Under the pieces are notes generated by a model. The model did no database searches, was not told the origin of the DNA, and saw only the letters and a program-made list of their open reading frames with translations. A stretch of 64,000 bases of DNA from Nemertoderma westbladi. Lineage: Eukaryota > Animalia > Xenacoelomorpha. Of the stretch, positions 1 to 52,001 are shown piece by piece; positions within the stretch are counted from its first letter, which is position 1, and the number at the start of each line of letters is the position of its first letter. The translations under genes and the position numbers were made by a program. Location: NCBI GenBank assembly GCA_032718475.1, contig JAUCBJ010002196.1, positions 18,299 through 82,298 of the forward strand. The letters are read 5' to 3'.

Positions 1-3000
1 CTGTGTCACACAATACTATCAGCTTGTGTCATACAATACTCTCTGCCTGTGTCACACAATACTATCAGCTTGTGTCATACAATACTCTCTGCCTGTGTCA
101 CACAATACTCTCTGATTGTGTCACACAATACTCTCTGTCTGTGTCACACAATACTCTCTGCTTGTGTCACACAATACTCTCTGCCTGTGTCACACAATAC
201 TATCAGCTTGTGTCACACAATACTCTCTGTCTGTGTCACACAATACTCTCTGCCTGTGTCACACAATACTCTCTGCCTGTGTCACACAATACTCCTGCTT
301 GTGTCACACAAGACGCTCTGATTGTGTCACACAATATTCTCTGTCTGTGTCACACAATACTATCAGCTTGTGTCACACAATACTCTCTGCCTGTGTCACA
401 CAATACTCTATGTCTGTGTCACACAATACTATCAGCTTGTGTCACACAATACTCTCTACCTGTGTCACACAATACTCTCTGAGTGTGTGAATTAATACTC
501 ACTGCCTGTGTCACACAATACTATCAGCTTGTGTCACACAATACTCTCTGAGTGTGTGACTCAATACTCTCTGCCTGTGTCACACAATACTCTCTGCTTG
601 TGTCACACAAGACGCTCTGCTTGTGTCACACAATACTCTCTGTCTGTGTCACACAATACGTTCTGCTTGTGTCACACAATACGTACTGCTTGTGTCACAC
701 AATACTCTCTACCTGTGTCACAGAATACTCTCTACCTGTGTCACACAATACTCTCTGTCTGTGTCACACAATACTCTCTGCCTGTGTCACACAATACTCT
801 CTGCCTGTGTCACACAATACTATCAGCTTGTGTCACACAATACTATCTGCCTGTGTAACACAATACTCACTGATTGTGTCGCACAATACTCTCTGCCTGT
901 GTCACACAATACTCTCTGCTGGTGTCACACAATGCTCTCTGCCTGCGTCACACAATACTCCTGCTTGTGTCACACAATACGCTCTGCTTGTGTCACACAA
1001 TACTCTCAGTCTGTATCACACAAGACGCTCTGAGTGTGTGACTCAATACTCTCTGCCTGTGTCACACAATACTATCAGCTTCTGTCACACAATACTCTCT
1101 GCCTGTGTCACACAATACTCTCTGAGCGTGTGATTCAATACTCTCTGCCTGTGTCACACAATACTCTCTGAGTGTGTGACTCAATACTCTCTGCCTGTGT
1201 CACACAATACTATCAGCTTGTGTCACACAATACTCTCTGCCTGTGTGACACAATACTCTCTGAGTGTGTGAATTAATACTCAATGCCTGTGTCACACAAT
1301 ACTATCAGCTTGTGTCACACAATACTCTCTGAGTGTGTGACTCAATACTCTCTGCCTGTGTCACACAATACTCTCTACTTGTGTCACACAAGACGCTCTG
1401 CTTGTGTCACACAATACTCTCTGTCTGTGTCACACAATACGTTCTGCTTGTGTCACACAATACGTTCTGCTTGTGTCACACAATACTCTCTACCTGTGTC
1501 ACAGAATACTCTCTACCTGTGTCACACAATACTCTCTGTCTGTGTCACTCAATACTCTCTGCCTGTGTCACACAATACTCTCTGCCTGTGTCACACAATA
1601 CTATCAGCTTGTGTCACACAATACTATCTGCCTGTGTCACACAATACTCACTGATTGTGTCGCACAATACTCTCTGCCTGTGTCACACAATACTCTCTGC
1701 TGGTGTCACACAATACTATCTGCCTGCGTCACACAATACTCCTGCTTGTGTCACACAATACGCTCTGCTTGTGTCACACAATACTCTCAGTCTGTGTCAC
1801 ACAAGACGCTCTGAGTGTGTGACTCAATACTCTCTGCCTGTGTCACACAATACTATCAGCTTCTGTCACACAATACACTCTGCCTGTGTCACACAATACT
1901 CTCTGAGTGTGTGACTCAATACTCTCTGCCTGTGTCACACAATACTCTCTGAGTGTGTGACTCAATACTCTCTGCCTGTGTCACACAATACTATCAGCTT
2001 GTGTCACACAATACTCTCTGCCTGTGTCACACAATACTCTCTGATTGTGTCACACAATACTCTCTGTCTGTGTCAAACAATACTCTCTGCTTGTGTCACA
2101 CAATACTCTCTGCCCGTGTCACGCAATACTCTCTGAGTGTGTGAATTAATACTCACTGCCTGTGTCACACAATACTATCAGCTTGTGTCATACAATACTC
2201 TCTGCCTGTGTCACACAATACTATCAGCTTGTGTCATACAATACTCTCTGCCTGTGTCACACAATACTCTCTGATTGTGTCACACAATACTCTCTGTCTG
2301 TGTCACACAATAATCTCTGCTTGTGTCACACAATACTCTCTGCCTGTGTCACACAATACTATCAGCTTGTGTACACAATACTCTCTGTCTGTGTCACACA
2401 ATACTCTCTGAGTGTGTGACTCAATACTCTCTGCCTGTGTCACACAATACTATCAGCTTGTGTCATACAATACTCTCTGCCTGTGTCACACAATACTATC
2501 AGCTTGTGTCATACAATACTCTCTGCCTGTGTCACACAATACTCTCTGATTGTGTCACACAATACTCTCTGTCTGTGTCACACAATACTCTCTGCTTGTG
2601 TCACACAATACTCTCTGCCTGTGTCACACAATACTATCAGCTTGTGTCACACAATACTCTCTGTCTGTGTCACACAATACTCTCTGCCTGTGTCACACAA
2701 TACTCCTGCTTGTGTCACACAAGACGCTCTGCTTGTGTCACACAATATTCTCTGTCTGTGTCACACAATACTATCAGCTTGTGTCACACAATACTCTCTG
2801 CCTGTGTCACACAATACTCTATGTCTGTGTCACACAATACTATCAGCTTGTGTCACACAATACTCTCTACCTGTGTCACACAATACTCTCTGAGTGTGTG
2901 AATTAATACTCACTGCCTGTGTCACACAATACTATCAGCTTGTGTCACACAATACTCTCTGAGTGTGTGACTCAATACTCTCTGCCTGTGTCACACAATA

Positions 3001-6000
3001 CTCTCTGCTTGTGTCACACAAGACGCTCTGCTTGTGTCACACAATACTCTCTGTCTGTGTCACACAATACGTTCTGCTTGTGTCACACAATACGTACTGC
3101 TTGTGTCACACAATACTCTCTACCTGTGTCACAGAATACTCTCTACCTGTGTCACACAATACTCTCTGTCTGTGTCACACAATACTCTCTGCCTGTGTCA
3201 CACAATACTCTCTGCCTGTGTCACACAATACTATCAGCTTGTGTCACACAATACTATCTGCCTGTGTAACACAATACTCACTGATTGTGTCGCACAATAC
3301 TCTCTGCCTGTGTCACACAATACTCTCTGCTGGTGTCACACAATGCTCTCTGCCTGCGTCACACAATACTCCTGCTTGTGTCACACAATACGCTCTGCTT
3401 GTGTCACACAATACTCTCTGCTGGTGTCACACAATGCTCTCTGCCTGCGTCACACAATACTATCAGCTTGTGTCACACAATACTCTCTGAGTGTGTGAAT
3501 TAATACTCACTGCCTGTGTCACACAATACTATCAGCTTGTGTCATACAATACTCTCTGCCTGTGTCACACAATACTATCAGCTTGTGTCATACAATACTC
3601 TCTGCCTGTGTCACACAATACTATCAGCTTGTGTCATACAATACTCTCTGCTTGTGTCACACAATACTTTCTGCCCTTGTCACGCAATACTCTCTGAGTG
3701 TGTGAATTAATACTCACTGCCTGTGTCACACAATACTATCAGCTTGTGTCATACAATACTCTCTGCCTGTGTCACACAATACTATCAGCTTGTGTCATAC
3801 AATACTCTCTGCCTGTGTCACACAATACTATCAGCTTGTGTCATACAATACTCTCTGCTTGTGTCACACAATACTCTCTGCCCTTGTCACGCAATACTCT
3901 CTGAGTGTGTGAATTAATACTCACTGCCTGTGTCACACAATACTATCAGCTTGTGTCATACAATACTCTCTGCCTGTGTCACACAATACTATCAGCTTGT
4001 GTCATACAATACTCTCTGCCTGTGTCACACAATACTATCAGCTTGTGTCATACAATACTCTCTGCCTGTGTCACACAATACTCTCTGATTGTGTCACACA
4101 ATACTCTCTGTCTGTGTCACACAATAATCTCTGCTTGTGTCACACAATACTCTCTGCCTGTGTCACACAATACTATCAGCTTGTGTCACACAATACTCTC
4201 TGCCTGTGCCACACAATACTATCAGCTTGTGTCATACAATACTCTCTGCTTGTGTCACACAATACTCTCTGCCTGTGTCACACAATGCTCTCTGATTGTG
4301 TCACACAATACTCTCTGCCTGTGTCACACAATACTCTCTGAGTGTGTGACTCAATACTCTCTGCCTGTGTCACACAATACTATCAGCTTGTGTCACACAA
4401 TACTCTCTGCCTGTGCCACACAATACTATCAGCTTGTGTCATACAATACTCTCTGCCTGTGTCACACAATACTATCAGCTTGTGTCACACAATACTCTCT
4501 GCCTGTGCCACACAATACTATCAGCTTGTGTCATACAATACTCTCTGCCTGTGCCACACAATACTATCAGCTTGTGTCATACAATACTCTCTGCCTGTGC
4601 CACACAATACTCTCTGTCTGTGTCACACAATACTCTCTGCCTGTGTCACACAATACTCTCTGCCTGTGTCACACAATACTATCAGCTTGTCTCACACAAT
4701 ACTATCAGCTTGTGTCACACAATACTCTCTGCCTGTGCCACACAATACTATCAGCTTGTGTCATACAATACTCTCTGCCTGTGTCACACAATACTATCAG
4801 CTTGTGTCACACAATACTCTCTGCCTGTGCCACACAATACTATCAGCTTGTGTCATACAATACTCTCTGCCTGTGCCACACAATACTCTCTGTCTGTGTC
4901 ACACAATACTCTCTGCCTGTGTCACACAATACTCTCTGCCTGTGTCACACAATACTATCAGCTTGTCTCACACAATACTATCAGCTTGTGTCACACAATA
5001 CTCTCTGCCTGTGCCACACAATACTATCAGCTTGTGTCATACAATACTCTCTGCCTGTGTCACACAATACTATCAGCTTGTGTCACACAATACTCTCTGC
5101 CTGTGCCACACAATACTATCAGCTTGTGTCATACAATACTCTCTGCCTGTGCCACACAATACTCTCTGTCTGTGTCACACAATACTCTCTGCCTGTGTCA
5201 CACAATACTCTCTGCCTGTGTCACACAATACTATCAGCTTGTCTCACACAATACTATCAGCTTGTGTCACACAATACTCTCTGCCTGTGCCACACAATAC
5301 TATCAGCTTGTGTCATACAATACTCTCTGCCTGTGTCACACAATACTATCAGCTTGTGTCACACAATACTCTCTGCCTGTGTCACACAATACTCTCTGCC
5401 TGTGTCACACAATACTCTCTGCCTGTGTCACACAATACTCTCTGCCTGTGTCACACAATACTCTCTACCTGTGTCACACAATAATCTCTGCTTGTGTCAC
5501 ACAATACTATCAGCTTGTGTCACACAATACTCTCTGAGTGTGTGACTCAATACTCTCTGCCTGTGTCACACAATACTATCAGCTTGTGTCACACAATACT
5601 CTCTGCCTGTGCCACACAATACTATCAGCTTGTGTCATACAATACTCTCTGCCTGTGTCACACAATACTATCAGCTTGTGTCACACAATACTCTCTGCCT
5701 GTGTCACACAATACTCTCTGCCTGTGTCACACAATACTCTCTACCTGTGTCACACAATAATCTCTGCTTGTGTCACACAATACTCACTGCCTGTGTCACA
5801 CAATACTATCAGCTTGTGTCATACAATACTCTCTGCCTGTGTCACACAATACTATCAGCTTGTGTCATACAATACTCTCTGCCTGTGTCACACAATACTC
5901 TCTGATTGTGTCACACAATACTCTCTGTCTGTGTCACACAATAATCTCTGCTTGTGTCACACAATACTCTCTGCCTGTGTCACACAATACTCTCTGCCTG

Positions 6001-9000
6001 TGTCACACAATACTATCAGCTTGTGTCATACAATAATCTCTGCCTGTGTCACACAATACTCTCTGCCTGTGTCACACAATACTATCAGCTTGTCTCACAC
6101 AATACTATCAGCTTGTGTCACACAATACTCTCTGCCTGTGCCACACAATACTATCAGCTTGTGTCATACAATACTCTCTGCCTGTGTCACACAATACTAT
6201 CAGCTTGTGTCACACAATACTCTCTGCCTGTGTCACACAATACTCTCTGCCTGTGTCACACAATACTCTCTGCCTGTGTCACACAATACTCTCTGCCTGT
6301 GTCACACAATACTCTCTACCTGTGTCATACAATAATCTCTGCTTGTGTCACACAATACTATCAGCTTGTGTCACACAATACTCTCTGAGTGTGTGACTCA
6401 ATACTCTCTGCCTGTGTCACACAATACTATCAGCTTGTGTCACACAATACTCTCTGCCTGTGCCACACAATACTATCAGCTTGTGTCATACAATACTCTC
6501 TGCCTGTGTCACACAATACTATCAGCTTGTGTCACACAATACTCTCTGCCTGTGTCACACAATACTCTCTGCCTGTGTCACACAATACTCTCTACCTGTG
6601 TCACACAATAATCTCTGCTTGTGTCACACAATACTCACTGCCTGTGTCACACAATACTATCAGCTTGTGTCATACAATACTCTCTGCCTGTGTCACACAA
6701 TACTATCAGCTTGTGTCATACAATACTCTCTGCCTGTGTCACACAATACTCTCTGATTGTGTCACACAATACTCTCTGTCTGTGTCACACAATAATCTCT
6801 GCTTGTGTCACACAATACTCTCTGCCTGTGTCACACAATACTCTCTGCCTGTGTCACACAATACTATCAGCTTGTGTCATACAATACTCTCTGCCTGTGT
6901 CACACAATACTCTCTGCCTGTGACACACAATACTCTCTGCCTGTGACACACAATACTCTCTGCCTGTGACACACAATACTCTCTGCCTGTGTCACACAAT
7001 ACTCTCTGATTGTGTCACACAATACTCTCTGCCTGTGCCACACAATACTATCAGCCTGTGTCACACAATAATCTCTGCTTGTGTCACACAATACTCTCTG
7101 CCTGTGTCACACAATACTCTCTGCCCTTGTCACACAATACTCTCTGTCTGTGTCACACAATAATCTCTGCTTGTGTCACACAATACTCTCTGCTTGTGTC
7201 ACACAATACTATCAGCTTCTGTCACACAATACTCTCTGCCTGTGTCACACAATACTCTCTGAGCGTGTGATTCAATACTCTCTGCCTGTGTCACACAATA
7301 CTCTCTGAGTGTGTGACTCAATACTCTCTGCCTGTGTCACACAATACTATCAGCTTGTGTCACACAATACTCTCTGCCTGTGTGACACAATACTCTCTGA
7401 GTGTGTGAATTAATACTCAATGCCTGTGTCACACAATACTATCAGCTTGTGTCACACAATACTCTCTGAGTGTGTGACTCAATACTCTCTGCCTGTGTCA
7501 CACAATACTCTCTACTTGTGTCACACAAGACGCTCTGCTTGTGTCACACAATACTCTCTGTCTGTGTCACACAATACGTTCTGCTTGTGTCACACAATAC
7601 GTTCTGCTTGTGTCACACAATACTCTCTACCTGTGTCACAGAATACTCTCTACCTGTGTCACACAATACTCTCTGTCTGTGTCACTCAATACTCTCTGCC
7701 TGTGTCACACAATAGTCTCTGCCTGTGTCACACAATACTATCAGCTTGTGTCACACAATACTATCTGCCTGTGTCACACAATACTCACTGATTGTGTCGC
7801 ACAATACTCTCTGCCTGTGTCACACAATACTCTCTGCTGGTGTCACACAATACTATCTGCCTGCGTCACACAATACTCCTGCTTGTGTCACACAATACGC
7901 TCTGCTTGTGTCACACAATACTCTCAGTCTGTGTCACACAAGACGCTCTGAGTGTGTGACTCAATACTCTCTGCCTGTGTCACACAATACTATCAGCTTC
8001 TGTCACACAATACACTCTGCCTGTGTCACACAATACTCTCTGAGTGTGTGACTCAATACTCTCTGCCTGTGTCACACAATACTCTCTGAGTGTGTGACTC
8101 AATACTCTCTGCCTGTGTCACACAATACTATCAGCTTGTGTCACACAATACTCTCTGCCTGTGTCACACAATACTCTCTGATTGTGTCACACAATACTCT
8201 CTGTCTGTGTCAAACAATACTCTCTGCTTGTGTCACACAATACTCTCTGCCCGTGTCACGCAATACTCTCTGAGTGTGTGAATTAATACTCACTGCCTGT
8301 GTCACACAATACTATCAGCTTGTGTCATACAATACTCTCTGCCTGTGTCACACAATACTATCAGCTTGTGTCATACAATACTCTCTGCCTGTGTCACACA
8401 ATACTCTCTGATTGTGTCACACAATACTCTCTGTCTGTGTCACACAATAATCTCTGCTTGTGTCACACAATACTCTCTGCCTGTGTCACACAATACTATC
8501 AGCTTGTGTACACAATACTCTCTGTCTGTGTCACACAATACTCTCTGAGTGTGTGACTCAATACTCTCTGCCTGTGTCACACAATACTATCAGCTTGTGT
8601 CATACAATACTCTCTGCCTGTGTCACACAATACTATCAGCTTGTGTCATACAATACTCTCTGCCTGTGTCACACAATACTCTCTGATTGTGTCACACAAT
8701 ACTCTCTGTCTGTGTCACACAATACTCTCTGCTTGTGTCACACAATACTCTCTGCCTGTGTCACACAATACTATCAGCTTGTGTCACACAATACTCTCTG
8801 TCTGTGTCACACAATACTCTCTGCCTGTGTCACACAATACTCCTGCTTGTGTCACACAAGACGCTCTGCTTGTGTCACACAATATTCTCTGTCTGTGTCA
8901 CACAATACTATCAGCTTGTGTCACACAATACTCTCTGCCTGTGTCACACAATACTCTATGTCTGTGTCACACAATACTATCAGCTTGTGTCACACAATAC

Positions 9001-12000
9001 TCTCTACCTGTGTCACACAATACTCTCTGAGTGTGTGAATTAATACTCACTGCCTGTGTCACACAATACTATCAGCTTGTGTCACACAATACTCTCTGAG
9101 TGTGTGACTCAATACTCTCTGCCTGTGTCACACAATACTCTCTGCTTGTGTCACACAAGACGCTCTGCTTGTGTCACACAATACTCTCTGTCTGTGTCAC
9201 ACAATACGTTCTGCTTGTGTCACACAATACGTACTGCTTGTGTCACACAATACTCTCTACCTGTGTCACAGAATACTCTCTACCTGTGTCACACAATACT
9301 CTCTGTCTGTGTCACACAATACTCTCTGCCTGTGTCACACAATACTCTCTGCCTGTGTCACACAATACTATCAGCTTGTGTCACACAATACTATCTGCCT
9401 GTGTAACACAATACTCACTGATTGTGTCGCACAATACTCTCTGCCTGTGTCACACAATACTCTCTGCTGGTGTCACACAATGCTCTCTGCCTGCGTCACA
9501 CAATACTCCTGCTTGTGTCACACAATACGCTCTGCTTGTGTCACACAATACTCTCTGCTGGTGTCACACAATGCTCTCTGCCTGCGTCACACAATACTAT
9601 CAGCTTGTGTCACACAATACTCTCTGAGTGTGTGAATTAATACTCACTGCCTGTGTCACACAATACTATCAGCTTGTGTCATACAATACTCTCTGCCTGT
9701 GTCACACAATACTATCAGCTTGTGTCATACAATACTCTCTGCCTGTGTCACACAATACTATCAGCTTGTGTCATACAATACTCTCTGCTTGTGTCACACA
9801 ATACTTTCTGCCCTTGTCACGCAATACTCTCTGAGTGTGTGAATTAATACTCACTGCCTGTGTCACACAATACTATCAGCTTGTGTCATACAATACTCTC
9901 TGCCTGTGTCACACAATACTATCAGCTTGTGTCATACAATACTCTCTGCCTGTGTCACACAATACTATCAGCTTGTGTCATACAATACTCTCTGCTTGTG
10001 TCACACAATACTCTCTGCCCTTGTCACGCAATACTCTCTGAGTGTGTGAATTAATACTCACTGCCTGTGTCACACAATACTATCAGCTTGTGTCATACAA
10101 TACTCTCTGCCTGTGTCACACAATACTATCAGCTTGTGTCATACAATACTCTCTGCCTGTGTCACACAATACTATCAGCTTGTGTCATACAATACTCTCT
10201 GCCTGTGTCACACAATACTCTCTGATTGTGTCACACAATACTCTCTGTCTGTGTCACACAATAATCTCTGCTTGTGTCACACAATACTCTCTGCCTGTGT
10301 CACACAATACTATCAGCTTGTGTCACACAATACTCTCTGCCTGTGCCACACAATACTATCAGCTTGTGTCATACAATACTCTCTGCTTGTGTCACACAAT
10401 ACTCTCTGCCTGTGTCACACAATACTCTCTGATTGTGTCACACAATACTCTCTGCCTGTGTCACACAATACTCTCTGAGTGTGTGACTCAATACTCTCTG
10501 CCTGTGTCACACAATACTATCAGCTTGTGTCACACAATACTCTCTGCCTGTGCCACACAATACTATCAGCTTGTGTCATACAATACTCTCTGCCTGTGTC
10601 ACACAATACTATCAGCTTGTGTCACACAATACTCTCTGCCTGTGCCACACAATACTATCAGCTTGTGTCATACAATACTCTCTGCCTGTGCCACACAATA
10701 CTATCAGCTTGTGTCATACAATACTCTCTGCCTGTGCCACACAATACTCTCTGTCTGTGTCACACAATACTCTCTGCCTGTGTCACACAATACTCTCTGC
10801 CTGTGTCACACAATACTATCAGCTTGTCTCACACAATACTATCAGCTTGTGTCACACAATACTCTCTGCCTGTGCCACACAATACTATCAGCTTGTGTCA
10901 TACAATACTCTCTGCCTGTGTCACACAATACTATCAGCTTGTGTCACACAATACTCTCTGCCTGTGCCACACAATACTATCAGCTTGTGTCATACAATAC
11001 TCTCTGCCTGTGCCACACAATACTCTCTGTCTGTGTCACACAATACTCTCTGCCTGTGTCACACAATACTCTCTGCCTGTGTCACACAATACTATCAGCT
11101 TGTCTCACACAATACTATCAGCTTGTGTCACACAATACTCTCTGCCTGTGCCACACAATACTATCAGCTTGTGTCATACAATACTCTCTGCCTGTGTCAC
11201 ACAATACTATCAGCTTGTGTCACACAATACTCTCTGCCTGTGCCACACAATACTATCAGCTTGTGTCATACAATACTCTCTGCCTGTGCCACACAATACT
11301 CTCTGTCTGTGTCACACAATACTCTCTGCCTGTGTCACACAATACTCTCTGCCTGTGTCACACAATACTATCAGCTTGTCTCACACAATACTATCAGCTT
11401 GTGTCACACAATACTCTCTGCCTGTGCCACACAATACTATCAGCTTGTGTCATACAATACTCTCTGCCTGTGTCACACAATACTATCAGCTTGTGTCACA
11501 CAATACTCTCTGCCTGTGTCACACAATACTCTCTGCCTGTGTCACACAATACTCTCTGCCTGTGTCACACAATACTCTCTGCCTGTGTCACACAATAATC
11601 TCTGCTTGTGTCACACAATACTATCAGCTTGTGTCACACAATACTCTCTGAGTGTGTGACTCAATACTCTCTGCCTGTGTCACACAATACTATCAGCTTG
11701 TGTCACACAATACTCTCTGCCTGTGCCACACAATACTATCAGCTTGTGTCATACAATACTCTCTGCCTGTGTCACACAATACTATCAGCTTGTGTCACAC
11801 AATACTCTCTGCCTGTGTCACACAATACTCTCTGCCTGTGTCACACAATACTCTCTACCTGTGTCACACAATAATCTCTGCTTGTGTCACACAATACTCA
11901 CTGCCTGTGTCACACAATACTATCAGCTTGTGTCATACAATACTCTCTGCCTGTGTCACACAATACTATCAGCTTGTGTCATACAATACTCTCTGCCTGT

Positions 12001-15000
12001 GTCACACAATACTCTCTGATTGTGTCACACAATACTCTCTGTCTGTGTCACACAATAATCTCTGCTTGTGTCACACAATACTCTCTGCCTGTGTCACACA
12101 ATACTCTCTGCCTGTGTCACACAATACTATCAGCTTGTGTCATACAATAATCTCTGCCTGTGTCACACAATACTCTCTGCCTGTGTCACACAATACTATC
12201 AGCTTGTCTCACACAATACTATCAGCTTGTGTCACACAATACTCTCTGCCTGTGCCACACAATACTATCAGCTTGTGTCATACAATACTCTCTGCCTGTG
12301 TCACACAATACTATCAGCTTGTGTCACACAATACTCTCTGCCTGTGTCACACAATACTCTCTGCCTGTGTCACACAATACTCTCTGCCTGTGTCACACAA
12401 TACTCTCTGCCTGTGTCACACAATACTCTCTACCTGTGTCACACAATAATCTCTGCTTGTGTCACACAATACTATCAGCTTGTGTCACACAATACTCTCT
12501 GAGTGTGTGACTCAATACTCTCTGCCTGTGTCACACAATACTATCAGCTTGTGTCACACAATACTCTCTGCCTGTGCCACACAATACTATCAGCTTGTGT
12601 CATACAATACTCTCTGCCTGTGTCACACAATACTATCAGCTTGTGTCACACAATACTCTCTGCCTGTGTCACACAATACTCTCTGCCTGTGTCACACAAT
12701 ACTCTCTACCTGTGTCACACAATAATCTCTGCTTGTGTCACACAATACTCACTGCCTGTGTCACACAATACTATCAGCTTGTGTCATACAATACTCTCTG
12801 CCTGTGTCACACAATACTATCAGCTTGTGTCATACAATACTCTCTGCCTGTGTCACACAATACTCTCTGATTGTGTCACACAATACTCTCTGTCTGTGTC
12901 ACACAATAATCTCTGCTTGTGTCACACAATACTCTCTGCCTGTGTCACACAATACTCTCTGCCTGTGTCACACAATACTATCAGCTTGTGTCATACAATA
13001 CTCTCTGCCTGTGTCACACAATACTCTCTGCCTGTGACACACAATACTCTCTGCCTGTGACACACAATACTCTCTGCCTGTGACACACAATACTCTCTGC
13101 CTGTGTCACACAATACTCTCTGATTGTGTCACACAATACTCTCTGCCTGTGCCACACAATACTATCAGCCTGTGTCACACAATAATCTCTGCTTGTGTCA
13201 CACAATACTCTCTGCCTGTGTCACACAATACTCTCTGCCCTTGTCACACAATACTCTCTGTCTGTGTCACACAATAATCTCTGCTTGTGTCACACAATAC
13301 TCTCTGCTTGTGTCACACAATACTCTCTGCCCTTGTCACACAATACTCTCTGATTGTGTCACACAATACTCTCTGCCTGTGTCACACAATACTATCAGCT
13401 TGTGTCATACAATGCTCTCTGCCTGTGTCACACAATACTCTCTGCCTGTGTCACACAATACTCTCTGATTGTGTCACACAATACTCTCTGTCTGTGTCAC
13501 ACAATAATCTCTGCTTGTGTCACACAATACTCTCTGCCTGTGTCACACAATACTCTCTGATTGTGTCACACAATACTCTCTGTCTGTGTCACACAATAAT
13601 CTCTGCTTGTGTCACACAATACTCTCTGCCTGTGTCACACAATACTATCAGCTTGTGTCATACAATACTCTCTGCCTGTGTCACACAATACTCTCTGCCT
13701 GTGTCACACAATACTCTCTGTCTGTGTCACACAATAATCTCTGCTTGTGTCACACAATACTCTCTGCCTGTGTCACACAATACTATCAGCTTGTGTACAC
13801 AATACTCTCTGTCTGTGTCACACAATACTCTCTGAGTGTGTGACTCAATACTCTCTGCCTGTGTCACACAATACTATCAGCTTGTGTCATACAATACTCT
13901 CTGCCTGTGTCACACAATACTATCAGCTTGTGTCATACAATACTCTCTGCCTGTGTCACACAATACTCTCTGATTGTGTCACACAATACTCTCTGTCTGT
14001 GTCACACAATACTCTCTGCTTGTGTCACACAATACTCTCTGCCTGTGTCACACAATACTCTCTGATTGTGTCACACAATACTCTCTGCCTGTGTCACACA
14101 ATACTATCAGCTTGTGTCATACAATACTCTCTGCCTGTGTCACACAATACTCTCTGCCTGTGTCACACAATACTCTCTGATTGTGTCACACAATACTCTC
14201 TGTCTGTGTCACACAATAATCTCTGCTTGTGTCACACAATACTCTCTGCCTGTGTCACACAATACTCTCTGATTGTGTCACACAATACTCTCTGTCTGTG
14301 TCACACAATAATCTCTGCTTGTGTCACACAATACTCTCTGCCTGTGTCACACAATACTATCAGCTTGTGTCATACAATACTCTCTGCCTGTGTCACACAA
14401 TACTCTCTGCCTGTGTCACACAATACTCTCTGTCTGTGTCACACAATAATCTCTGCTTGTGTCACACAATACTCTCTGCCTGTGTCACACAATACTATCA
14501 GCTTGTGTACACAATACTCTCTGTCTGTGTCACACAATACTCTCTGAGTGTGTGACTCAATACTCTCTGCCTGTGTCACACAATACTATCAGCTTGTGTC
14601 ATACAATACTCTCTGCCTGTGTCACACAATACTATCAGCTTGTGTCATACAATACTCTCTGCCTGTGTCACACAATACTCTCTGATTGTGTCACACAATA
14701 CTCTCTGTCTGTGTCACACAATACTCTCTGCTTGTGTCACACAATACTCTCTGCCTGTGTCACACAATACTATCAGCTTGTGTCACACAATACTCTCTGT
14801 CTGTGTCACACAATACTCTCTGCCTGTGTCACACAATACTCCTGCTTGTGTCACACAAGACGCTCTGATTGTGTCACACAATATTCTCTGTCTGTGTCAC
14901 ACAATACTATCAGCTTGTGTCACACAATACTCTCTGCCTGTGTCACACAATACTCTATGTCTGTGTCACACAATACTATCAGCTTGTGTCACACAATACT

Positions 15001-18000
15001 CTCTACCTGTGTCACACAATACTCTCTGAGTGTGTGAATTAATACTCACTGCCTGTGTCACACAATACTATCAGCTTGTGTCACACAATACTCTCTGAGT
15101 GTGTGACTCAATACTCTCTGCCTGTGTCACACAATACTCTCTGCTTGTGTCACACAAGACGCTCTGCTTGTGTCACACAATACTCTCTGTCTGTGTCACA
15201 CAATACGTTCTGCTTGTGTCACACAATACGTACTGCTTGTGTCACACAATACTCTCTACCTGTGTCACAGAATACTCTCTACCTGTGTCACACAATACTC
15301 TCTGTCTGTGTCACACAATACTCTCTGCCTGTGTCACACAATACTCTCTGCCTGTGTCACACAATACTATCAGCTTGTGTCACACAATACTATCTGCCTG
15401 TGTAACACAATACTCACTGATTGTGTCGCACAATACTCTCTGCCTGTGTCACACAATACTCTCTGCTGGTGTCACACAATGCTCTCTGCCTGCGTCACAC
15501 AATACTCCTGCTTGTGTCACACAATACGCTCTGCTTGTGTCACACAATACTCTCAGTCTGTATCACACAAGACGCTCTGAGTGTGTGACTCAATACTCTC
15601 TGCCTGTGTCACACAATACTATCAGCTTCTGTCACACAATACTCTCTGCCTGTGTCACACAATACTCTCTGAGCGTGTGATTCAATACTCTCTGCCTGTG
15701 TCACACAATACTCTCTGAGTGTGTGACTCAATACTCTCTGCCTGTGTCACACAATACTATCAGCTTGTGTCACACAATACTCTCTGCCTGTGTGACACAA
15801 TACTCTCTGAGTGTGTGAATTAATACTCAATGCCTGTGTCACACAATACTATCAGCTTGTGTCACACAATACTCTCTGAGTGTGTGACTCAATACTCTCT
15901 GCCTGTGTCACACAATACTCTCTACTTGTGTCACACAAGACGCTCTGCTTGTGTCACACAATACTCTCTGTCTGTGTCACACAATACGTTCTGCTTGTGT
16001 CACACAATACGTTCTGCTTGTGTCACACAATACTCTCTACCTGTGTCACAGAATACTCTCTACCTGTGTCACACAATACTCTCTGTCTGTGTCACTCAAT
16101 ACTCTCTGCCTGTGTCACACAATAGTCTCTGCCTGTGTCACACAATACTATCAGCTTGTGTCACACAATACTATCTGCCTGTGTCACACAATACTCACTG
16201 ATTGTGTCGCACAATACTCTCTGCCTGTGTCACACAATACTCTCTGCTGGTGTCACACAATACTATCTGCCTGCGTCACACAATACTCCTGCTTGTGTCA
16301 CACAATACGCTCTGCTTGTGTCACACAATACTCTCAGTCTGTGTCACACAAGACGCTCTGAGTGTGTGACTCAATACTCTCTGCCTGTGTCACACAATAC
16401 TATCAGCTTCTGTCACACAATACACTCTGCCTGTGTCACACAATACTCTCTGAGTGTGTGACTCAATACTCTCTGCCTGTGTCACACAATACTCTCTGAG
16501 TGTGTGACTCAATACTCTCTGCCTGTGTCACACAATACTATCAGCTTGTGTCACACAATACTCTCTGCCTGTGTCACACAATACTCTCTGATTGTGTCAC
16601 ACAATACTCTCTGTCTGTGTCAAACAATACTCTCTGCTTGTGTCACACAATACTCTCTGCCCGTGTCACGCAATACTCTCTGAGTGTGTGAATTAATACT
16701 CACTGCCTGTGTCACACAATACTATCAGCTTGTGTCATACAATACTCTCTGCCTGTGTCACACAATACTATCAGCTTGTGTCATACAATACTCTCTGCCT
16801 GTGTCACACAATACTCTCTGATTGTGTCACACAATACTCTCTGTCTGTGTCACACAATAATCTCTGCTTGTGTCACACAATACTCTCTGCCTGTGTCACA
16901 CAATACTATCAGCTTGTGTACACAATACTCTCTGTCTGTGTCACACAATACTCTCTGAGTGTGTGACTCAATACTCTCTGCCTGTGTCACACAATACTAT
17001 CAGCTTGTGTCATACAATACTCTCTGCCTGTGTCACACAATACTATCAGCTTGTGTCATACAATACTCTCTGCCTGTGTCACACAATACTCTCTGATTGT
17101 GTCACACAATACTCTCTGTCTGTGTCACACAATACTCTCTGCTTGTGTCACACAATACTCTCTGCCTGTGTCACACAATACTATCAGCTTGTGTCACACA
17201 ATACTCTCTGTCTGTGTCACACAATACTCTCTGCCTGTGTCACACAATACTCCTGCTTGTGTCACACAAGACGCTCTGCTTGTGTCACACAATATTCTCT
17301 GTCTGTGTCACACAATACTATCAGCTTGTGTCACACAATACTCTCTGCCTGTGTCACACAATACTCTATGTCTGTGTCACACAATACTATCAGCTTGTGT
17401 CACACAATACTCTCTACCTGTGTCACACAATACTCTCTGAGTGTGTGAATTAATACTCACTGCCTGTGTCACACAATACTATCAGCTTGTGTCACACAAT
17501 ACTCTCTGAGTGTGTGACTCAATACTCTCTGCCTGTGTCACACAATACTCTCTGCTTGTGTCACACAAGACGCTCTGCTTGTGTCACACAATACTCTCTG
17601 TCTGTGTCACACAATACGTTCTGCTTGTGTCACACAATACGTACTGCTTGTGTCACACAATACTCTCTACCTGTGTCACAGAATACTCTCTACCTGTGTC
17701 ACACAATACTCTCTGTCTGTGTCACACAATACTCTCTGCCTGTGTCACACAATACTCTCTGCCTGTGTCACACAATACTATCAGCTTGTGTCACACAATA
17801 CTATCTGCCTGTGTAACACAATACTCACTGATTGTGTCGCACAATACTCTCTGCCTGTGTCACACAATACTCTCTGCTGGTGTCACACAATGCTCTCTGC
17901 CTGCGTCACACAATACTCCTGCTTGTGTCACACAATACGCTCTGCTTGTGTCACACAATACTCTCAGTCTGTATCACACAAGACGCTCTGAGTGTGTGAC

Positions 18001-20678
18001 TCAATACTCTCTGCCTGTGTCACACAATACTATCAGCTTCTGTCACACAATACTCTCTGCCTGTGTCACACAATACTCTCTGAGTGTGTGACTCAATACT
18101 CTCTGCCTGTGTCACACAATACTATCAGCTTGTGTCACACAATACTCTCTGCCTGTGTCACACAATACTCTCTGATTGTGTCACACAATACTCTCTGTCT
18201 GTGTCACACAATACTCTCTGCTTGTGTCACACAATACTCTCTGCCCGTGTCACGCAATACTCTCTGAGTGTGTGAATTAATACTCACTGCCTGTGTCACA
18301 CAATACTATCAGCTTGTGTCATACAATACTCTCTGCCTGTGTCACACAATACTATCAGCTTGTGTCATACAATACTCTCTGCCTGTGTCACACAATACTC
18401 TCTGATTGTGTCACACAATACTCTCTGTCTGTGTCACACAATAAGCTCTGCTTGTGTCACACAATGCTCTCTGCCTGTGTCACACAATACTATCAGCTTG
18501 TGTCACACAATACTCTCTGTCTGTGTCACACAATACTCTCTGAGTGTGTGACTCAATACTCTCTGCCTGTGTCACACAATACTATCAGCTTGTGTCATAC
18601 AATACTCTCTGCCTGTGTCACACAATACTATCAGCTTGTGTCATACAATACTCTCTGCCTGTGTCACACAATACTCTCTGATTGTGTCACACAATACTCT
18701 CTGTCTGTGTCACACAATACTCTCTGCTTGTGTCACACAATACTCTCTGCCTGTGTCACACAATACTATCAGCTTGTGTCACACAATACTCTCTGTCTGT
18801 GTCACACAATACTCTCTGCCTGTGTCACACAATACTCCTGCTTGTGTCACACAAGACGCTCTGCTTGTGTCACACAATACTCTCTGTCTGTGTCTCACAA
18901 TACTATCAGCTTGTGTCACACAATACTCTCTGCCTGTGTCACACAATACTCTATGTCTGTGTCACACAATACTATCAGCTTGTGTCACACAATACTCTCT
19001 ACCTGTGTCACACAATACTCTCTGAGTGTGTGAATTAATACTCACTGCCTGTGTCACACAATACTATCAGCTTGTGTCACACAATACTCTCTGAGTGTGT
19101 GACTCAATACTCTCTGCCTGTGTCACACAATACTATCAGCTTGTGTCACACAATTCTCTCTGAGTGTGTGACTCAATACTCTCTGCCTGTGTCACACAAT
19201 ACTCTCTGCTTGTGTCACACAAGACGCTCTGCTTGTGTCACACAATACTCTCTGTCTGTGTCACACAATACGTTTTGCTTGTGTCACACAATACGTTATG
19301 CTTGTGTCACACAATACTCTCCTCCTGTGTCACAGAATACTCTATACCTGTGTCACACAATACTCTCTGCCTGTGTCACACAATATTCTCTGCCTGTGTC
19401 ACACAATACTCTCTGCTTGTGTCACACAATACTCTCTGCCTGTGTCACACAATATTCTCTGCATGTGTCACACAATACTATCAGCTTGTGTCATACAATA
19501 CTCTCTGCCTGTGTCACACAATACTCTCTGCCTGTGTCAAACAATACTATCAGCTTGTGTCATACAATACACTCTGCCTGTGTCACACAATACTCACTGA
19601 TTGTGTCGCACAATACTCTCTGCCTGTGTCACACAATAATCTCTGCTTGTGACACACAATACTATCTGCCTGTGTCACACAATACTCCTGCTTGTGTCAC
19701 ACAATACTCTCTGTCTGTGTCATACAAGACGCTCTGCTTGGGTCACACAATAACCCCTGTATGTTTCACACAATACTATCAGCTTGTGTCACACAATACT
19801 CTCTGCCTGTGTCACACAATACTCTCTGAGTGTGTGACTCAATACTCTCTGCATGTGTCACACAATAGTATCAGCTTGTGTCACACAATACTATCTGCCT
19901 GTGTCACACAATACTATCAGCTTGTGTCACACAATACTCTCTGAGTGTGTGACTCAATACTCTCTGTCTGTGTCACACAATACTCTCTGCTCGTGTCACA
20001 CAATACACTCTGCTTGTGTCACACAATACTCTCTGTCTGTGTCACACAATACGTTTTGCTTGCGTCACACAATACGTTCTGCTTGTGTAACACAATACTC
20101 TCTTCCTGTGTCACAGAATACTCTCTACCTGTATCACACAATACTCTCTGCCTGTGTCACACAATATTATCTGCCTGTGTCACCCAATACTATCAGCTTG
20201 TGTCATACTATACTCTCTGCCTGTGTCACACAATACTCTCTGAATGTGTGACTCAATACTCTATGCATGTGTCACACAATAGTATCAGCTTGTGTCACAC
20301 AATACTATCTGCCTGTGTCACACAATACTATCAGCTTGTGTCACACAATACTCTCTGAGTGTGTGACTCAATACTCTCTGTCTGTGTCACACAATACTCT
20401 CTGCTCGTGTCACACAATACACTCTGCTTGTGTCACACAATACTCTCTGTCTGTGTCACACAATACGTTTTGCTTGTGTCACACAATATTATCTGCCTGT
20501 GTCACCCAATACTATCAGCTTGTGTCATACTATACTCTCTGCCTGTGTCATACAATACTCTCTGCCTGTGTCACACAATACTCACTGATTGTGTCGCACA
20601 ATACTCTCTGCCTGTGTCACACAATACTGTCTGCTTGTGTCACACAATACTATCTGTCTGTGTCACACAAGACGGTCT
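1..20678. repeat. 23-bp satellite array (consensus CTGTGTCACACAATACTCTCTGC) with nested higher-order repeats; runs off the window start
   Basis: Head-to-tail 23-bp monomers with recurring variants (…TATCAGCTTG…, …GAGTGTGTGACTC…, …AAGACG…). Identical ORF translations recur at offsets of 207, 851, 2411, 6137 and 8410 bp. Confidence 0.99.
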
Positions 20679-21212
20679 ATATTGTATTTATTCCAAGCCA
20701 CGGGGGCCCATAGTAAAATAGTAGATACATAAACAAAAAGGACATAAACAAAAAGGACATAAACAAACAAATACTTTACAAACAAATACTTTACAAAATA
20801 CACATAGCACACTAGTAATTAATAATAAACACCGAAACTCTAATAGCAATTACGTAGTTAAACGAAAAAGGCTAGTGCTGGTGCAAACTAAATATAACAG
20901 AGTAAGGTCTACATAAATTGTATACACCACCTAAGATAGTGTTGTAAGAATGAGTATTCTATTTAATAGGCTTTGTGAGGATCTATAAGTTATGTGAAAA
21001 AACATTGGCAAACGTAGTTCGCCAAAAGAAAGTGACATACTTGTAGGTTCTTCACCGGTGAGCCTAGGGATATTAAACAGTAGCCTAGCACAATTATTGT
21101 AAGCTACCCTAATCTTATCGTACGCACGATGTGAGTAGTTCTTACTAGCCCATAGGCTGTTGCAGTATATTGGGGTACAGTAAGCACGAAAAAGTGCAGT
21201 TTTAACATACAT
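20679..21212 (-). mobile_element. 3' terminal fragment of a non-LTR retrotransposon (RTE-X-like ORF2 C-terminus plus 3' UTR)
   Basis: ORF 20931-21212 reads VKTALFRAYCTPIYCNSLW…KIRVAYNNCARLLF, which resembles the post-RT C-terminus of RTE-X-type LINEs. The 3' UTR ends …ATGGGCCCCCGTGGCTTGGAATAAATACAATATA at the satellite junction. Confidence 0.75.
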
Positions 21213-21397
21213 TTATTATAGGAAGGGATCTAGGGGTCTTAACCTCGAATGATAAGTTTATTTTACCGAAAATAACTTATCTTTTATTGGCGCAATTGTA
21301 GGACTAATCCCATCACATGCGTACTTTTTAACCGGGTAGTGTACAAATTTAAGAATCGCGTAATTTTTCTTGAAATTAATATCTCATATCTCTCCAA

Positions 21398-21440
21398 ACC
21401 ACGTACGCGTTTCGACCTTACTGGGTCTCATCAGCGTGGT
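21398..21440 (-). ncRNA. Type I hammerhead ribozyme (minimal stem III), copy 1
   Basis: The minus strand reads ACCACG CUGAUGA GACC-CAGUAA-GGUC GAAA CGCG UA/CGUGGU. This gives stem I ACCACG/CGUGGU, an intact CUGANGA and GAAA core, stem II GACC/GGUC, a palindromic ACGCGU stem III and a GUA cleavage triplet. Confidence 0.92.
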
Positions 21441-21503
21441 GTCGGATTCGAACCTGGGACCTCGAGGTGGAAGCCGAGACTACAACCACTAGGCCACAGG
21501 TTC
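21441..21503 (-). promoter_or_regulatory. tRNA-derived internal Pol III promoter (SINE-type head); repeated at +412, +824 and +1236
   Basis: A box TGGCCTAGTGG (21486-21496) and B box GGTTCGAATCC (21444-21454) at tRNA spacing. An anticodon-like arm CTCGG-CTTCCAC-CTCGAG is present. The acceptor stem does not pair. Confidence 0.85.
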
Positions 21504-21809
21504 TTGAGATATGGAGTATTAATTTCAAAGCCAGCTGCCATTTTATTAGCCCCTGAGTTTTTGATTATTGATAGTAACAATGTGTTGGCAAGCTGTATTT
21601 TTCGAGGTGTTTGTTATTCTACATTTATTATAGGAAGGGATCTAGGGGTCTTAACCTCGAATGATAAGTTTATTTTACCGAAAATAACTTATCTTTTATT
21701 GGCGCAATTGTAGGACTAATCCCATCACATGCGTACTTTTTAACCGGGTAGTGTACAAATTTAAGAATCGCGTAATTTTTCTTGAAATTAATATCTCATA
21801 TCTCTCCAA

Positions 21810-21852
21810 ACCACGTACGCGTTTCGACCTTACTGGGTCTCATCAGCGTGGT
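21810..21852 (-). ncRNA. Type I hammerhead ribozyme, copy 2
   Basis: Same sequence as 21398-21440, offset +412. Confidence 0.92.
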
Positions 21853-22221
21853 GTCGGATTCGAACCTGGGACCTCGAGGTGGAAGCCGAGACTACAACCA
21901 CTAGGCCACAGGTTCTTGAGATATGGAGTATTAATTTCAAAGCCAGCTGCCATTTTATTAGCCCCTGAGTTTTTGATTATTGATAGTAACAATGTGTTGG
22001 CAAGCTGTATTTTTCGAGGTGTTTGTTATTCTACATTTATTATAGGAAGGGATCTAGGGGTCTTAACCTCGAATGATAAGTTTATTTTACCGAAAATAAC
22101 TTATCTTTTATTGGCGCAATTGTAGGACTAATCCCATCACATGCGTACTTTTTAACCGGGTAGTGTACAAATTTAAGAATCGCGTAATTTTTCTTGAAAT
22201 TAATATCTCATATCTCTCCAA

Positions 22222-22264
22222 ACCACGTACGCGTTTCGACCTTACTGGGTCTCATCAGCGTGGT
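22222..22264 (-). ncRNA. Type I hammerhead ribozyme, copy 3
   Basis: Same sequence as 21398-21440, offset +824. Confidence 0.92.
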
Positions 22265-22633
22265 GTCGGATTCGAACCTGGGACCTCGAGGTGGAAGCCG
22301 AGACTACAACCACTAGGCCACAGGTTCTTGAGATATGGAGTATTAATTTCAAAGCCAGCTGCCATTTTATTAGCCCCTGAGTTTTTGATTATTGATAGTA
22401 ACAATGTGTTGGCAAGCTGTATTTTTCGAGGTGTTTGTTATTCTACATTTATTATAGGAAGGGATCTAGGGGTCTTAACCTCGAATGATAAGTTTATTTT
22501 ACCGAAAATAACTTATCTTTTATTGGCGCAATTGTAGGACTAATCCCATCACATGCGTACTTTTTAACCGGGTAGTGTACAAATTTAAGAATCGCGTAAT
22601 TTTTCTTGAAATTAATATCTCATATCTCTCCAA

Positions 22634-22676
22634 ACCACGTACGCGTTTCGACCTTACTGGGTCTCATCAGCGTGGT
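22634..22676 (-). ncRNA. Type I hammerhead ribozyme, copy 4
   Basis: Same sequence as 21398-21440, offset +1236. Confidence 0.92.
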
Positions 22677-22781
22677 GTCGGATTCGAACCTGGGACCTCG
22701 AGGTGGAAGCCGAGACTACAACCACTAGGCCACAGGTTCTTGAGATATGGAGTATTAATTTCAAAGCCAGCTGCCATTTTA

Positions 22782-24184
22782 TGTCACACAAGACGCTCTG
22801 CTTGTGTCACACAATACTCTATGTCTGTGTCACACAATACGTTCTGCTTGTGTTACACAATACTGTCTACCTGTGTGACACAATACTCTCTGAGTGTGTG
22901 AATTAATACTCACTGCCTGTGTCACACAATACTCTCGGAGTGTGTGACTCAACACTCTCTGCCTGTGTCACACAATACTATCAGCTTGTGTCACACAATA
23001 CTCTCTGTCTGTGTCACACAATACTATTACCTTGTGTCACACAATACTCTCTGCCTGTGTGACACAATACTCTCTGAGTGTGTGAATTAATACTCACTGC
23101 CTGTGTCACACAATACTATCAGCTTGTGTCACACAATACTCTCTGAGTGTGTGACTCAATACTCTCTGCCTGTGTCACACAATACTCTCTGCTTGTGTCA
23201 CACAAGACGCTCTGCTTGTGTCACACAATACTCTATGTCTGTGTCACACAATACGTTCTGCTTGTGTCACACAATACTTTCTACCTGTGTCACAGAATAC
23301 TCTCTGCCTGTGTCACACAATACTCTCTGTCTGTGTCACACAATACTCTCTGCCTGTGTCACACAATACTCTCTGCCTGTGTCACACAATACTATCAGCT
23401 TGTGTCTGCGGGTGTCACACAATACTCTCTGCCTGCGTCACACAATACTCCTGCTTCTGTCACACAATACGCTCTGCTTGTGTCACACAATACTCTCAGT
23501 CTGTGTCACACAAGACGCTCTGCTTGGGTCACACAATCCTCCCTGTATGTGTCATACAATACTATCAGCTTCTGTCACGCAATACTCTCTGCCTGTGTCA
23601 CACAATACTCTCTGAGTGTGTGACTCAATACTCTCTGCCTGTGTCACAATACTATCAGCTTGTGTCATACAATACTCTCTGCCTGTGTCACACAATACTC
23701 TCTGCTTGTGTCACACAATACTCTCTGCCTGTGTCACACAATACTCCTGCTTGTGTCACACAAGACGCTCTGCTTGTGTCACACAATACTCTCTGTCTAT
23801 GTCACACAATACTATCAGCTTGTGTCACACAATACTCTCTGTCTGTGTCACACAATACTCTCGGAGTGTGTGACTCAACACTCTCTGCCTGTGTCACACA
23901 ATACTATCAGCTTGTGTCACACAATACTCTCTGTCTGTGTCACACAATACTCTCTACCTGTGTCACAGAATACTCTCTACCTGTGTCACGCAATACTCTC
24001 TGCCTGTGTCACACAATACTCTCTGCCTCTGCCACACAATACTCTCTGCTTGTGTCACACAATACTATCTGCCTGTGACACACAATACTCTCTGCTTGTG
24101 CCACACAATACTCTCTACCTGTGTCACGCAATATTCTCTGCCTGTGTCACACAATACACTCTGCCTGTGTCACACAATACTCTG
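22782..24184. repeat. 23-bp satellite, distal and more diverged block
   Basis: The same monomer resumes after the insertion, with more private substitutions. Confidence 0.98.
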
Positions 24185-49260: not shown

Positions 49261-49302
49261 CTACTACTACTAGGATCAGCATGCTGCATTGCAGCTGCAT
49301 TT

Positions 49303-51030: not shown

Positions 51031-51340
51031 ATTGATCGATTTCCATGCCTGGGATGATTGCCTGCTGTCGTCAGCATCATTGATGGCATCAACCTGTTGG
51101 TTTATTAGCTCCTGTAGATTAACAGCGTACTGCCTGTTCAGGGACCTAGATGCAGCCTTAACTGCATTCTTGGCCGCTGTAGTCTGTTTGAGTCGGGACT
51201 CTTTCTACGCCTTATGAAGGTCATTTCGGCACTTCTGAATTTTGTTGTCAGTCCAGGGGGCCCTTTTCCTGTTTCGAGGGTATACAGGAACTGCTTCTGC
51301 AGCTGCTAACTTAACTGCTTCTGTAAAGGCAGTATAGCCC

Positions 51341-51990: not shown

Positions 51991-52001
51991 AGTACTATAG
52001 T

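Follow-up and report, generated by a model that had tools for sequence, protein, structure and literature searches.

The described systems closest to the locus analyzed here are the metazoan non-LTR retrozymes, the SINE-like hammerhead repeats of Schistosoma (Sm-alpha) and the bipartite chimeras formed by LINEs. According to Cervera and de la Pena (2020; PMC7229834), retrozymes are built of non-coding units in tandem, each a few hundred bp long and with a G+C content <50%, and have one type I hammerhead per unit, a target-site duplication (TSD) >4 bp and a stable predicted circle. In the model outlined there, multimeric cDNA is made from the circle, and circles are given as a major or the main retrozyme RNA form in mussel and axolotl. 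A review from 2020 (PMC7761336) describes retrozymes as bearing no motif that names their helper and as seemingly promoterless. Penelope-like helpers are favoured on the basis of co-occurrence and sequence similarity (PMC7229834; 10.64898/2026.07.22.740005), and LINEs are named as possible helpers (PMC7229834). The Schistosoma repeats are tandem and have a Pol III-type promoter followed by the hammerhead, and cleavage leaves the promoter 3'-terminal in the unit; the passages on these repeats in that report mention no LINE fusion (PMC6765202). Among the LINE chimeras, U6/L1 and Alu/L1 (10.1101/2025.02.02.635956) combine a 5' copy of a non-coding RNA with a 3', 5'-truncated LINE in the same sense within one TSD, and the Magnaporthe elements MINE and WEIRD-MGL (PMC2104539) are also bipartite, same-sense and enclosed by one TSD. 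These bipartite chimeras have a TSD of 10-20 bp (10.1101/2025.02.02.635956; PMC2104539) and a 5' part that is mostly a single full-length copy ending at the RNA 3' end.

The window (the whole 64,000-nt stretch of DNA analyzed) contains a 2.1-kb insert in which a 5'-truncated LINE tail and 3.82 hammerhead units lie inside one 14-bp duplication (Table 1). The insert agrees with the retrozymes in its non-coding units of suitable length (about 150-450 bp) with G+C <50%, a full type I hammerhead core in every unit, a TSD >4 bp, a stable predicted circle and membership of a dispersed family, but its TSD also encloses a LINE 3' end joined to the array, and its unit has tRNA-like A and B boxes. It resembles the Schistosoma repeats in its tandem arrangement and in the order and position of promoter and hammerhead, and differs from their description in the LINE fusion. 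As in the LINE chimeras, both parts lie in one TSD in the same sense and the 3' part is a 5'-truncated LINE; the 5' part, in contrast, is a permuted 3.82-mer running from phase 270 to an internal phase, 196, rather than a full-length single RNA copy. The insert works like a U6/L1- or MINE-type chimera without being a typical member. Retrozymes and LINE chimeras are each already known, and their combination was not found in print in a search of titles and abstract openings, with most subscription papers and Repbase outside its range.

Table 1. Features of the insert and its surroundings (window positions)
Feature	Position	Strand	Remarks
Host satellite, 23-bp monomer	1..20660, resuming 22796-24183	.	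Contains exact duplications, the longest 2708 bp
TSD copy, element 3' side	20661..20674	.	14 bp, exact against 22782-22795
Gap between TSD and LINE 3' end	20675..20679	-	5 nt; mismatched TSD extension or untemplated/tail bases
3'-terminal 530 nt of APE-RT LINE	20680..21209	-	Independent contig match (X2 record 9) begins at 20680
LINE ORF2 C-terminal frame	20931..21209	-	One base missing near 20952 relative to main LINE contig of X1, X2
Junction microhomology TA, LINE and unit	21208..21209	-	2 nt, unit phase 195-196
Retrozyme array	21208..22782	-	1575 bp, 3.82 units of 412 bp
Type I hammerhead, first copy	21392..21446	-	Recurs every 412 bp
tRNA-like internal promoter candidate	21444..21496	-	A box 21496-21486, B box 21454-21444
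3' end hot spot of dispersed copies, A-rich tract	21557..21564	-	Phase 252, predicted open loop
TSD copy, element 5' side	22782..22795	.	Base 22782 common to TSD and array

The TSD (TGTCACACAAGACG) is exact in both copies, and 17 of 18 bases match when the comparison is extended (to 20678 in the 3'-side copy). This 14-mer variant is found at 21 of the 843 monomer starts scored elsewhere in the satellite (2.5%), which bears out the original prediction that a duplicated minority monomer brackets the LINE and the array. The prediction had also considered that two adjacent AAGACG monomers might have preceded the insertion. No such pair occurs elsewhere in the window, ACAAGACG has 27 sites in the window with no pair spaced <250 bp, and none of the other 25 AAGACG monomers in the window shows the exact empty-site context. 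Within the flanking satellite, an exact-run scan finds exact duplications of 1840-2708 bp, which show that DNA-level copying also produces identical blocks in the window. The satellites of the window gather retro-insertions as well.

The LINE tail comprises an ORF2 C-terminus, which we label as the thumb region, and a 3' UTR with an AATAAA-containing end and a predicted terminal stem-loop. It had been placed at 20679-21212; a LINE tail is indeed present, with independent contig limits at 20680-21209. The ORF adjoining the array is an APE-LINE C-terminus. HMMER returns 219 protein matches at E <= 0.001, and among the 15 scanned, APE and RT domains are both present in all seven matches of 919-956 aa. 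By homology the element is an APE-type LINE whose ORF2 would contain an APE endonuclease and an RT; its own 5' part is not in the insert. Because its relatives are APE+RT proteins of this size, its enzyme is of a kind other than Penelope. The top HMMER matches P0001 and P0003 lack an RT and look repeat-driven, and P0002 is a fragment without any Pfam family; these matches were set aside. The LINE fragment itself has no match in word-based protein searches, Pfam, PDB or viral contigs and only unnamed clusters in the protein atlas. Motifs in the protein alignment may correspond to those of RTEX, so the RTE-X assignment first proposed is tentative. Proto2 has been confused with RTE-X (PMC10294476). 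Relative to the main contig, the tail differs at 6 sites in 530 nt; four of these lack contig support, and they cluster within 53 nt (P about 0.004), a pattern that points to a source variant.

The array had been described as 3.8 apparently identical copies, and 3.82 copies with 0 mismatches are found, terminal partial copies included. Such identity is not diagnostic of origin because the flanking satellite holds exact 1.8-2.7-kb duplications. Every array copy has A at 21352, a position at which G makes up about 94-96% of the depth summed in X1 and X2; common non-majority alleles of this kind are as expected from one template, not from polishing to a family consensus. The unit has a G+C content of about 0.40, and its sole frame >80 aa lies on the antisense strand and runs from stop to stop. 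Hammerhead cleavage is predicted after 21404, 21816, 22228 and 22640, and the cores are identical in all four copies. Helix III has 2 bp inside the palindrome ACGCGT, so cleavage probably needs a dimer. Against Rfam HH9 the hammerhead scores 26.6 bits (E 2.9e-4), below the gathering score of 52, and no Rfam family matches the unit at gathering level. The promoter candidate was located using the A/B box consensus; the end of its B box is overlapped by hammerhead helix I, and ARAGORN finds no tRNA gene. Counted by phase, the landmarks of the unit are the cleavage site (412/1), the A box (320) and a single T4 run (132), and the array ends at phases 270 (5') and 195-196 (3'). A stable circle is predicted by folding, at -103.1 kcal/mol compared with -80.7 +/- 5.4 kcal/mol in 100 shuffles. 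Self-cleavage, circularisation and pol III transcription of the unit are likewise predicted, from the motif and the literature.

The minus strand carries the hammerhead as well as the LINE frame, in line with the common orientation claimed for the two parts. The main LINE contig of X1, X2 and X3 shows 0 differences to the window over 21110-21209 and continues thereafter into further LINE sequence that differs from the window. Since the LINE's own contigs diverge after 21209, the junction overlap is 2 nt rather than 5: of the TACAT at 21208-21212 proposed as shared, only TA (21208-21209) is common to both parts, and the microhomology put forward in favour of a template switch shrinks accordingly. 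An overlap of TA is expected by chance about 17% of the time. In X1, X2 and X3 (two samples), the depth over 21110-21199 is that of a single LINE contig and is flat on the LINE side of the junction, and no bridging contig is present among the contigs listed for these two samples. In these two samples the element is therefore not a fixed composite SINE, which the original prediction had named as a refuting alternative and which would have added depth on the LINE side. Of 39 joints, the 15 listed include no LINE-to-unit joint elsewhere. The insertion looks like a single, probably polymorphic one. Loose ends also cluster at 21207-21212, but this was not accepted as a hot spot of ends, since many of them carry the last bases of the previous unit and the clusters pool reference-cut positions. 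RtcB-type ligation at the ribozyme cut was ruled out as the origin of the junction, its phase being 196. Comparison of the LINE tail with the unit ends gives no clear mimicry beyond AATAA.

That a LINE made the insertion as one event is well supported, in agreement with the original prediction, by the one TSD, the same sense of both parts, the position of the LINE 3' end on the side where priming occurs, and the lack of a 5' LINE remnant. The same-sense, 5'-truncated layout with the LINE at the 3' side is that of known LINE chimeras. The reading preferred here, tentatively and at somewhat less than an even chance, is that a single target-primed reverse transcription produced the insert, the LINE enzyme having switched internally onto a retrozyme circle with a predicted length of 412 nt and gone round it. 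A nick would have been made in the satellite after an AAGACG monomer, followed by priming at the LINE 3' end. The enzyme would then probably have left its own RNA after 530 nt and moved to the circle at phase 196, held there by pairing over 2 nt; this phase coincides neither with the end cut by the ribozyme nor with a pol III stop. Strand-displacing copying would have continued round the circle for at least two turns, with second-strand joining at phase 270. Because the insert spans four intact cleavage sites, its template was circular, uncleaved or DNA, and the junction phase coincides with no linear end of the unit. Against the switch stand the single event with a 2-nt microhomology at chance level and the 6 differences of the LINE part versus 0 in the array, which may have been homogenised later. 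So do the mostly full-length 5' partners of known LINE chimeras, the exact duplications in the satellite, the lack of an independent contig across the junction and the published preference for Penelope-like helpers. Non-LTR RTs are also described (10.1101/792986) as jumping to the 3' end of the acceptor, which counts against a circle because a circle has none. The original proposal that the ribozyme RNA was copied by the RT of the LINE, nearly four times round the circle, is a reading drawn from one locus.

The insert may instead contain captured, ready-made DNA, in which case the nick, the TSD and the tail of 530 nt would be the work of the LINE, and the array would have been joined at the 5' gap as filler. 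Filler capture occurs at retro-insertions, the family is very abundant, and the 2-nt and 1-nt microhomologies at the array ends fit end joining. Same sense, however, has only even odds for filler and is expected from a template switch, and a genomic donor would need to be a homogeneous array of at least four copies despite the highly variable family. Capture is unlikely, though worth weighing; the filler would derive from retrozyme cDNA made by another RT (e.g. Penelope) or from a genomic array copy, and the circle would not have been copied by the LINE RT.

A linear template seems quite unlikely; here a genomic array would have given rise to a multimeric transcript that stayed uncleaved, and the LINE RT would have switched to it or copied RNA fused with it. 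The 2-bp helix III is in its favour, as are the multimeric RNAs seen in axolotl and the eight of nine Xenopus dimers left uncleaved in vitro. Such a transcript, however, would have four intact sites and four T4 runs to pass, dimeric constructs cleave efficiently in axolotl (PMC7229834), and RtcB-type ligation as in U6/L1 would give phase 412, not 196. Later expansion is improbable as the source of the copy number: about 1.8 units would have been inserted with the LINE tail and whole units added later by unequal crossover or slippage within the satellite domain. The exact 1.8-2.7-kb satellite duplications, a LINE part that diverges from its main family when the array does not, and the local amplification invoked for retrozyme arrays in a 2026 preprint (10.64898/2026.07.22.740005) are consistent with expansion, whereas the terminal partial copies are also without differences. 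Expansion would start with more than one unit, so the first template would still have crossed two cut sites.

An artefact of assembly or library at the junction or in the copy number is very improbable. No bridging contig is found among those listed for the two samples, and in X2 the LINE 3' end has another flank without extra depth; yet a misjoin would not duplicate a rare monomer in phase at both ends, the copies bear non-majority alleles, rare variants are lost from contigs, and there may be differences between the individuals sequenced. Two insertions (a truncated LINE with its TSD and then an array exactly at its 5' edge, or nested elements fused by a deletion) are just as improbable even with an abundant family and satellites that collect retro-insertions in the window, as the array lacks a TSD of its own and abuts that of the LINE without a LINE remnant, and both breakpoints would be needed within a base or two of the LINE edge.

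If the template-switch reading is true, helpers other than Penelope elements could serve such RNAs, and an RNA without a free end can act in vivo as the acceptor of a switching LINE RT that then goes round it. If a LINE is the helper, the locus is a direct genomic record naming the enzyme. A chimera carries a piece of its helper, and LINE-tail/retrozyme chimeras therefore become a direct test of helper identity; one locus does not establish LINEs as the usual retrozyme helper. A wider proposal, possible yet doubtful, is that an APE-type LINE (probably RTE-X) rather than Penelope works as a helper for this family of circular ribozymes. The LINE RT would load internally on the circle, usually at the A-rich loop where dispersed copies end and now and then after a switch away from the LINE's own RNA, and multimeric insertions would result from rolling-circle reverse transcription in vivo.

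The dispersed copies of the unit bear on internal loading. Thousands of matching contigs, many with unrelated flanks (X1, X2, X5), indicate a multi-copy dispersed family that is highly variable between copies; the summed contig depth over the unit exceeds that over the LINE roughly a thousandfold, depth not being copy number. Outside this family, relatives of the unit number 0 in viral contigs, and 16 pattern matches in metagenomes include none homologous beyond one 24-bp match. A 441-bp contig from X4 (organism B, its RNA nature only a guess) joins the end of the unit to its start, with 2 substitutions and 1 gap; it was not taken as evidence of circular RNA because a tandem DNA repeat assembles alike. 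The dispersed copies share a 3' end 252 nt past the cleavage site, found in 20, 22 and 4 contigs of X1, X2 and X5 (three studies). This common end is new in this analysis, and preferred ends inside a predicted open A-rich loop far from the cut site fit internal priming. Only 18 nt separate this family-wide preferred 3' end from the 5' start of the array. That the array ends are unrelated to landmarks of the unit thus holds for the promoter and the cleavage site, as originally stated, but not for this position.

The tandem array repeats at a period of 412 bp without a single mismatch over 1575 bp (3.82 units), in line with the original prediction of about 3.8 identical copies. Read on the minus strand, each unit carries tRNA-like sequences that we take, from their consensus, to be A and B boxes, followed by a complete hammerhead core of type I topology whose 2-bp helix III lies within the palindrome ACGCGT. 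ARAGORN finds no tRNA gene in the unit and no Rfam family matches it at gathering level, with family HH9 matching both scanned copies below that level (26.6 bits, E 2.9e-4). Modeled as a circle, the cut-to-cut 412-mer has a predicted energy of -103.1 kcal/mol versus -80.7 +/- 5.4 for 100 shuffles. Two copies are predicted to co-fold through the palindrome, resembling the dimeric metazoan hammerheads described in PMC7229834, and the promoter-then-ribozyme layout is shared with Schistosoma hammerhead repeats. Judged by its sequence, the unit is a non-LTR retrozyme, for which self-cleavage, circularization and transcription are predicted. In X4, a public sequencing run labeled as another organism (organism B), one contig of 441 bp joins the unit's end back to its start at ~99% identity; circular RNA, tandem DNA or carry-over would each fit this contig. 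In a metagenome contig (L013:3001-3057), a core motif resembling a hammerhead comes immediately after a tRNA-like sequence, a pairing that is probably due to chance.

Positions of the features within the window
Feature	Position	Strand	Basis
23-bp satellite	1-24183		
Putative target-site duplication, element's 3' side	20661-20674		
LINE part, 3'-terminal 530 nt	20680-21209	minus	
Retrozyme array	21208-22782	minus	
Predicted hammerhead cuts	after 21404, 21816, 22228, 22640	minus	motif
A-rich 3'-end hot spot	21557-21564	minus	contig ends in X1, X2, X5
Putative target-site duplication, element's 5' side	22782-22795		
64-bp satellite	32356-52307		
Second LINE	49303-51901	minus	
CLN3/battenin frame	52368-53777	minus	
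V-ATPase a subunit frame	61061-62317	minus	

Searched against 1.84 billion proteins, an 85-aa query from the minus-strand frame of the LINE part has 219 matches at E <= 0.001. An RT domain is present in 12 of the 15 matches scanned, and all seven of these with lengths of 919-956 aa contain both an APE endonuclease and an RT. Because the 85-aa stretch aligns to the C-terminal end of such homologs, the LINE part is, on this alignment, the 3'-terminal piece of a LINE of the APE type; its motifs suggest RTE-X as a candidate clade. It differs from the main LINE contig of the public runs at six sites in 530 nt, two of which segregate among contigs of run X1 while the other four, grouped within 53 nt, are without support. 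Had these sites changed after insertion, the array, which has no differences, should have gained ~12-18 of them, so they are either source variants or the array was homogenized later. The second LINE, presumably RTE-like, lies within the 64-bp satellite and encodes an RT and DUF6451; its endonuclease part is broken.

The 23-bp satellite is broken by region 20661-22799. The 14-mer TGTCACACAAGACG occurs exactly at both ends of this region, with 17 of 18 bases matching when lengthened to 18, as expected from the proposed bracketing by a duplicated minority monomer. Two random satellite monomers share a 14-mer with a chance of 46%. Despite this background, the pair is best read as a target-site duplication flanking a 2107-nt insert, since the variant is found at only 21 of the 843 monomer starts that were scored and the window's 27 ACAAGACG sites are all at least 250 bp apart. 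The exact empty-site context is absent from the 25 other variant monomers of the window. An exact-run scan of positions 1-20660 reveals internal satellite duplications of 2708, 2361 and 1840 bp, reflecting either recent amplification or assembly-level copying.

Seven of eight public runs contain the stretch or part of it, all as contigs and none on record as RNA; X6 is without coverage of the LINE. Runs X1, X2 and X3, from two samples, each have one LINE contig that is identical to 21110-21209. The next 30 letters agree among the three runs and differ from the array; on the minus strand they extend the LINE frame with residues resembling, by eye, the homologs' preceding motif. As these contigs leave the window sequence after 21209, LINE and array overlap by TA only, rather than by the TACAT first proposed, and at least two shared bases are expected by chance at ~17% of junctions. 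Depth over 21110-21199 is flat and equal to that of the single LINE contig (396.3, 149.1 and 370.6 in X1, X2 and X3), and a fixed composite SINE, named in the original prediction as one refuting case, is not seen in these runs. No contig bridges the junction among the 26 pieces listed (780 more exist). Either these samples lack the insertion or, being a rare variant, it was lost from the contigs. The LINE 3' end has a different flank in X2, without extra depth. In X1 and X2, summed depth is 141,000-824,000 over the unit versus 149-869 over the LINE, which is not a copy number but clearly marks the retrozyme family as large and variable. The window copies all have A at 21352 against a family majority of G (~94-96% of X1 and X2 depth), indicating that polishing did not draw them to the family consensus.

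In three studies, many contigs depart from the unit at 21564 and run on into long flanks that are unrelated to one another; among partly matching contigs, X1 has 20 of 453 such cases, X2 has 22 of 397 and X5 has 4 of 40. These counts are among the rows listed (514 further rows exist), and other peaks may exist. Even ends would give ~0.5 contigs per place in X1 and X2; pooled over 20 places, the peak has P = 0.009 (X1), 0.0004 (X2) and 0.017 (X5). In sense, the peak marks a 3' end favored by the family, 252 nt past the cut (phase 252). It lies next to an A-run within a loop that is predicted to be open (mean unpaired 0.87 versus 0.42 overall), and the bases adjoining the hot-spot junctions are A/T-rich. 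Because a linear cleavage product has no end at phase 252, priming in this family is likely internal, which a circle or multimer would need, by an enzyme that the hot spot does not name. The window array has its 3' end at phase 196, away from the hot spot, and its 5' start at phase 270, 18 nt from it (chance ~9%, 37 of 412 places).

Within one target-site duplication, the insert joins a 5'-truncated LINE, its 3' end on the priming side, to an array in the same sense, both on the minus strand as originally described. One LINE-made insertion, whether completed by template switch, DNA capture, an uncleaved multimer or later expansion, is very probable. The junction lies at an internal unit phase, which rules out ligation to a ribozyme-cut end, and the insert crosses four intact cut sites. 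Placed first, at slightly under an even chance, is that LINE reverse transcription would start on its own RNA and then switch internally to a retrozyme circle. Against this stand the single event, junction microhomology at chance level and the tendency of known chimeras to join mostly at the partner's 3' end. Capture of ready-made DNA is an unlikely alternative source of the array, and an uncleaved multimer as template is somewhat less likely again. The long exact runs in the flanking satellite also weigh against the circle switch, since identical copies need not stem from a single copying round. Later expansion from ~1.8 units is improbable. Nested insertions and an artefact are both highly improbable.

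The layout of one target-site duplication, same sense and 5'-truncated LINE matches U6/L1 and MINE chimeras, from which the insert differs in that its 5' partner is a permuted multimer. Such LINE chimeras are already published, as are retrozyme arrays and the circle-to-multimer model, for which PMC7229834, PMC7761336 and a 2026 preprint favor Penelope-like elements as helper, with LINEs named as possible in PMC7229834. Each is known alone, and their combination appears to be new; a LINE tail with a retrozyme was not found in titles or abstract openings of the searched literature, whose coverage is incomplete. That an APE-type LINE is a regular helper for this family's circular RNA is doubtful.

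Elsewhere in the window, two uninterrupted frames with no introns lie between satellite blocks, one for CLN3/battenin (469 aa stop to stop) and one for the C-terminal half of the V-ATPase a subunit (418 aa).
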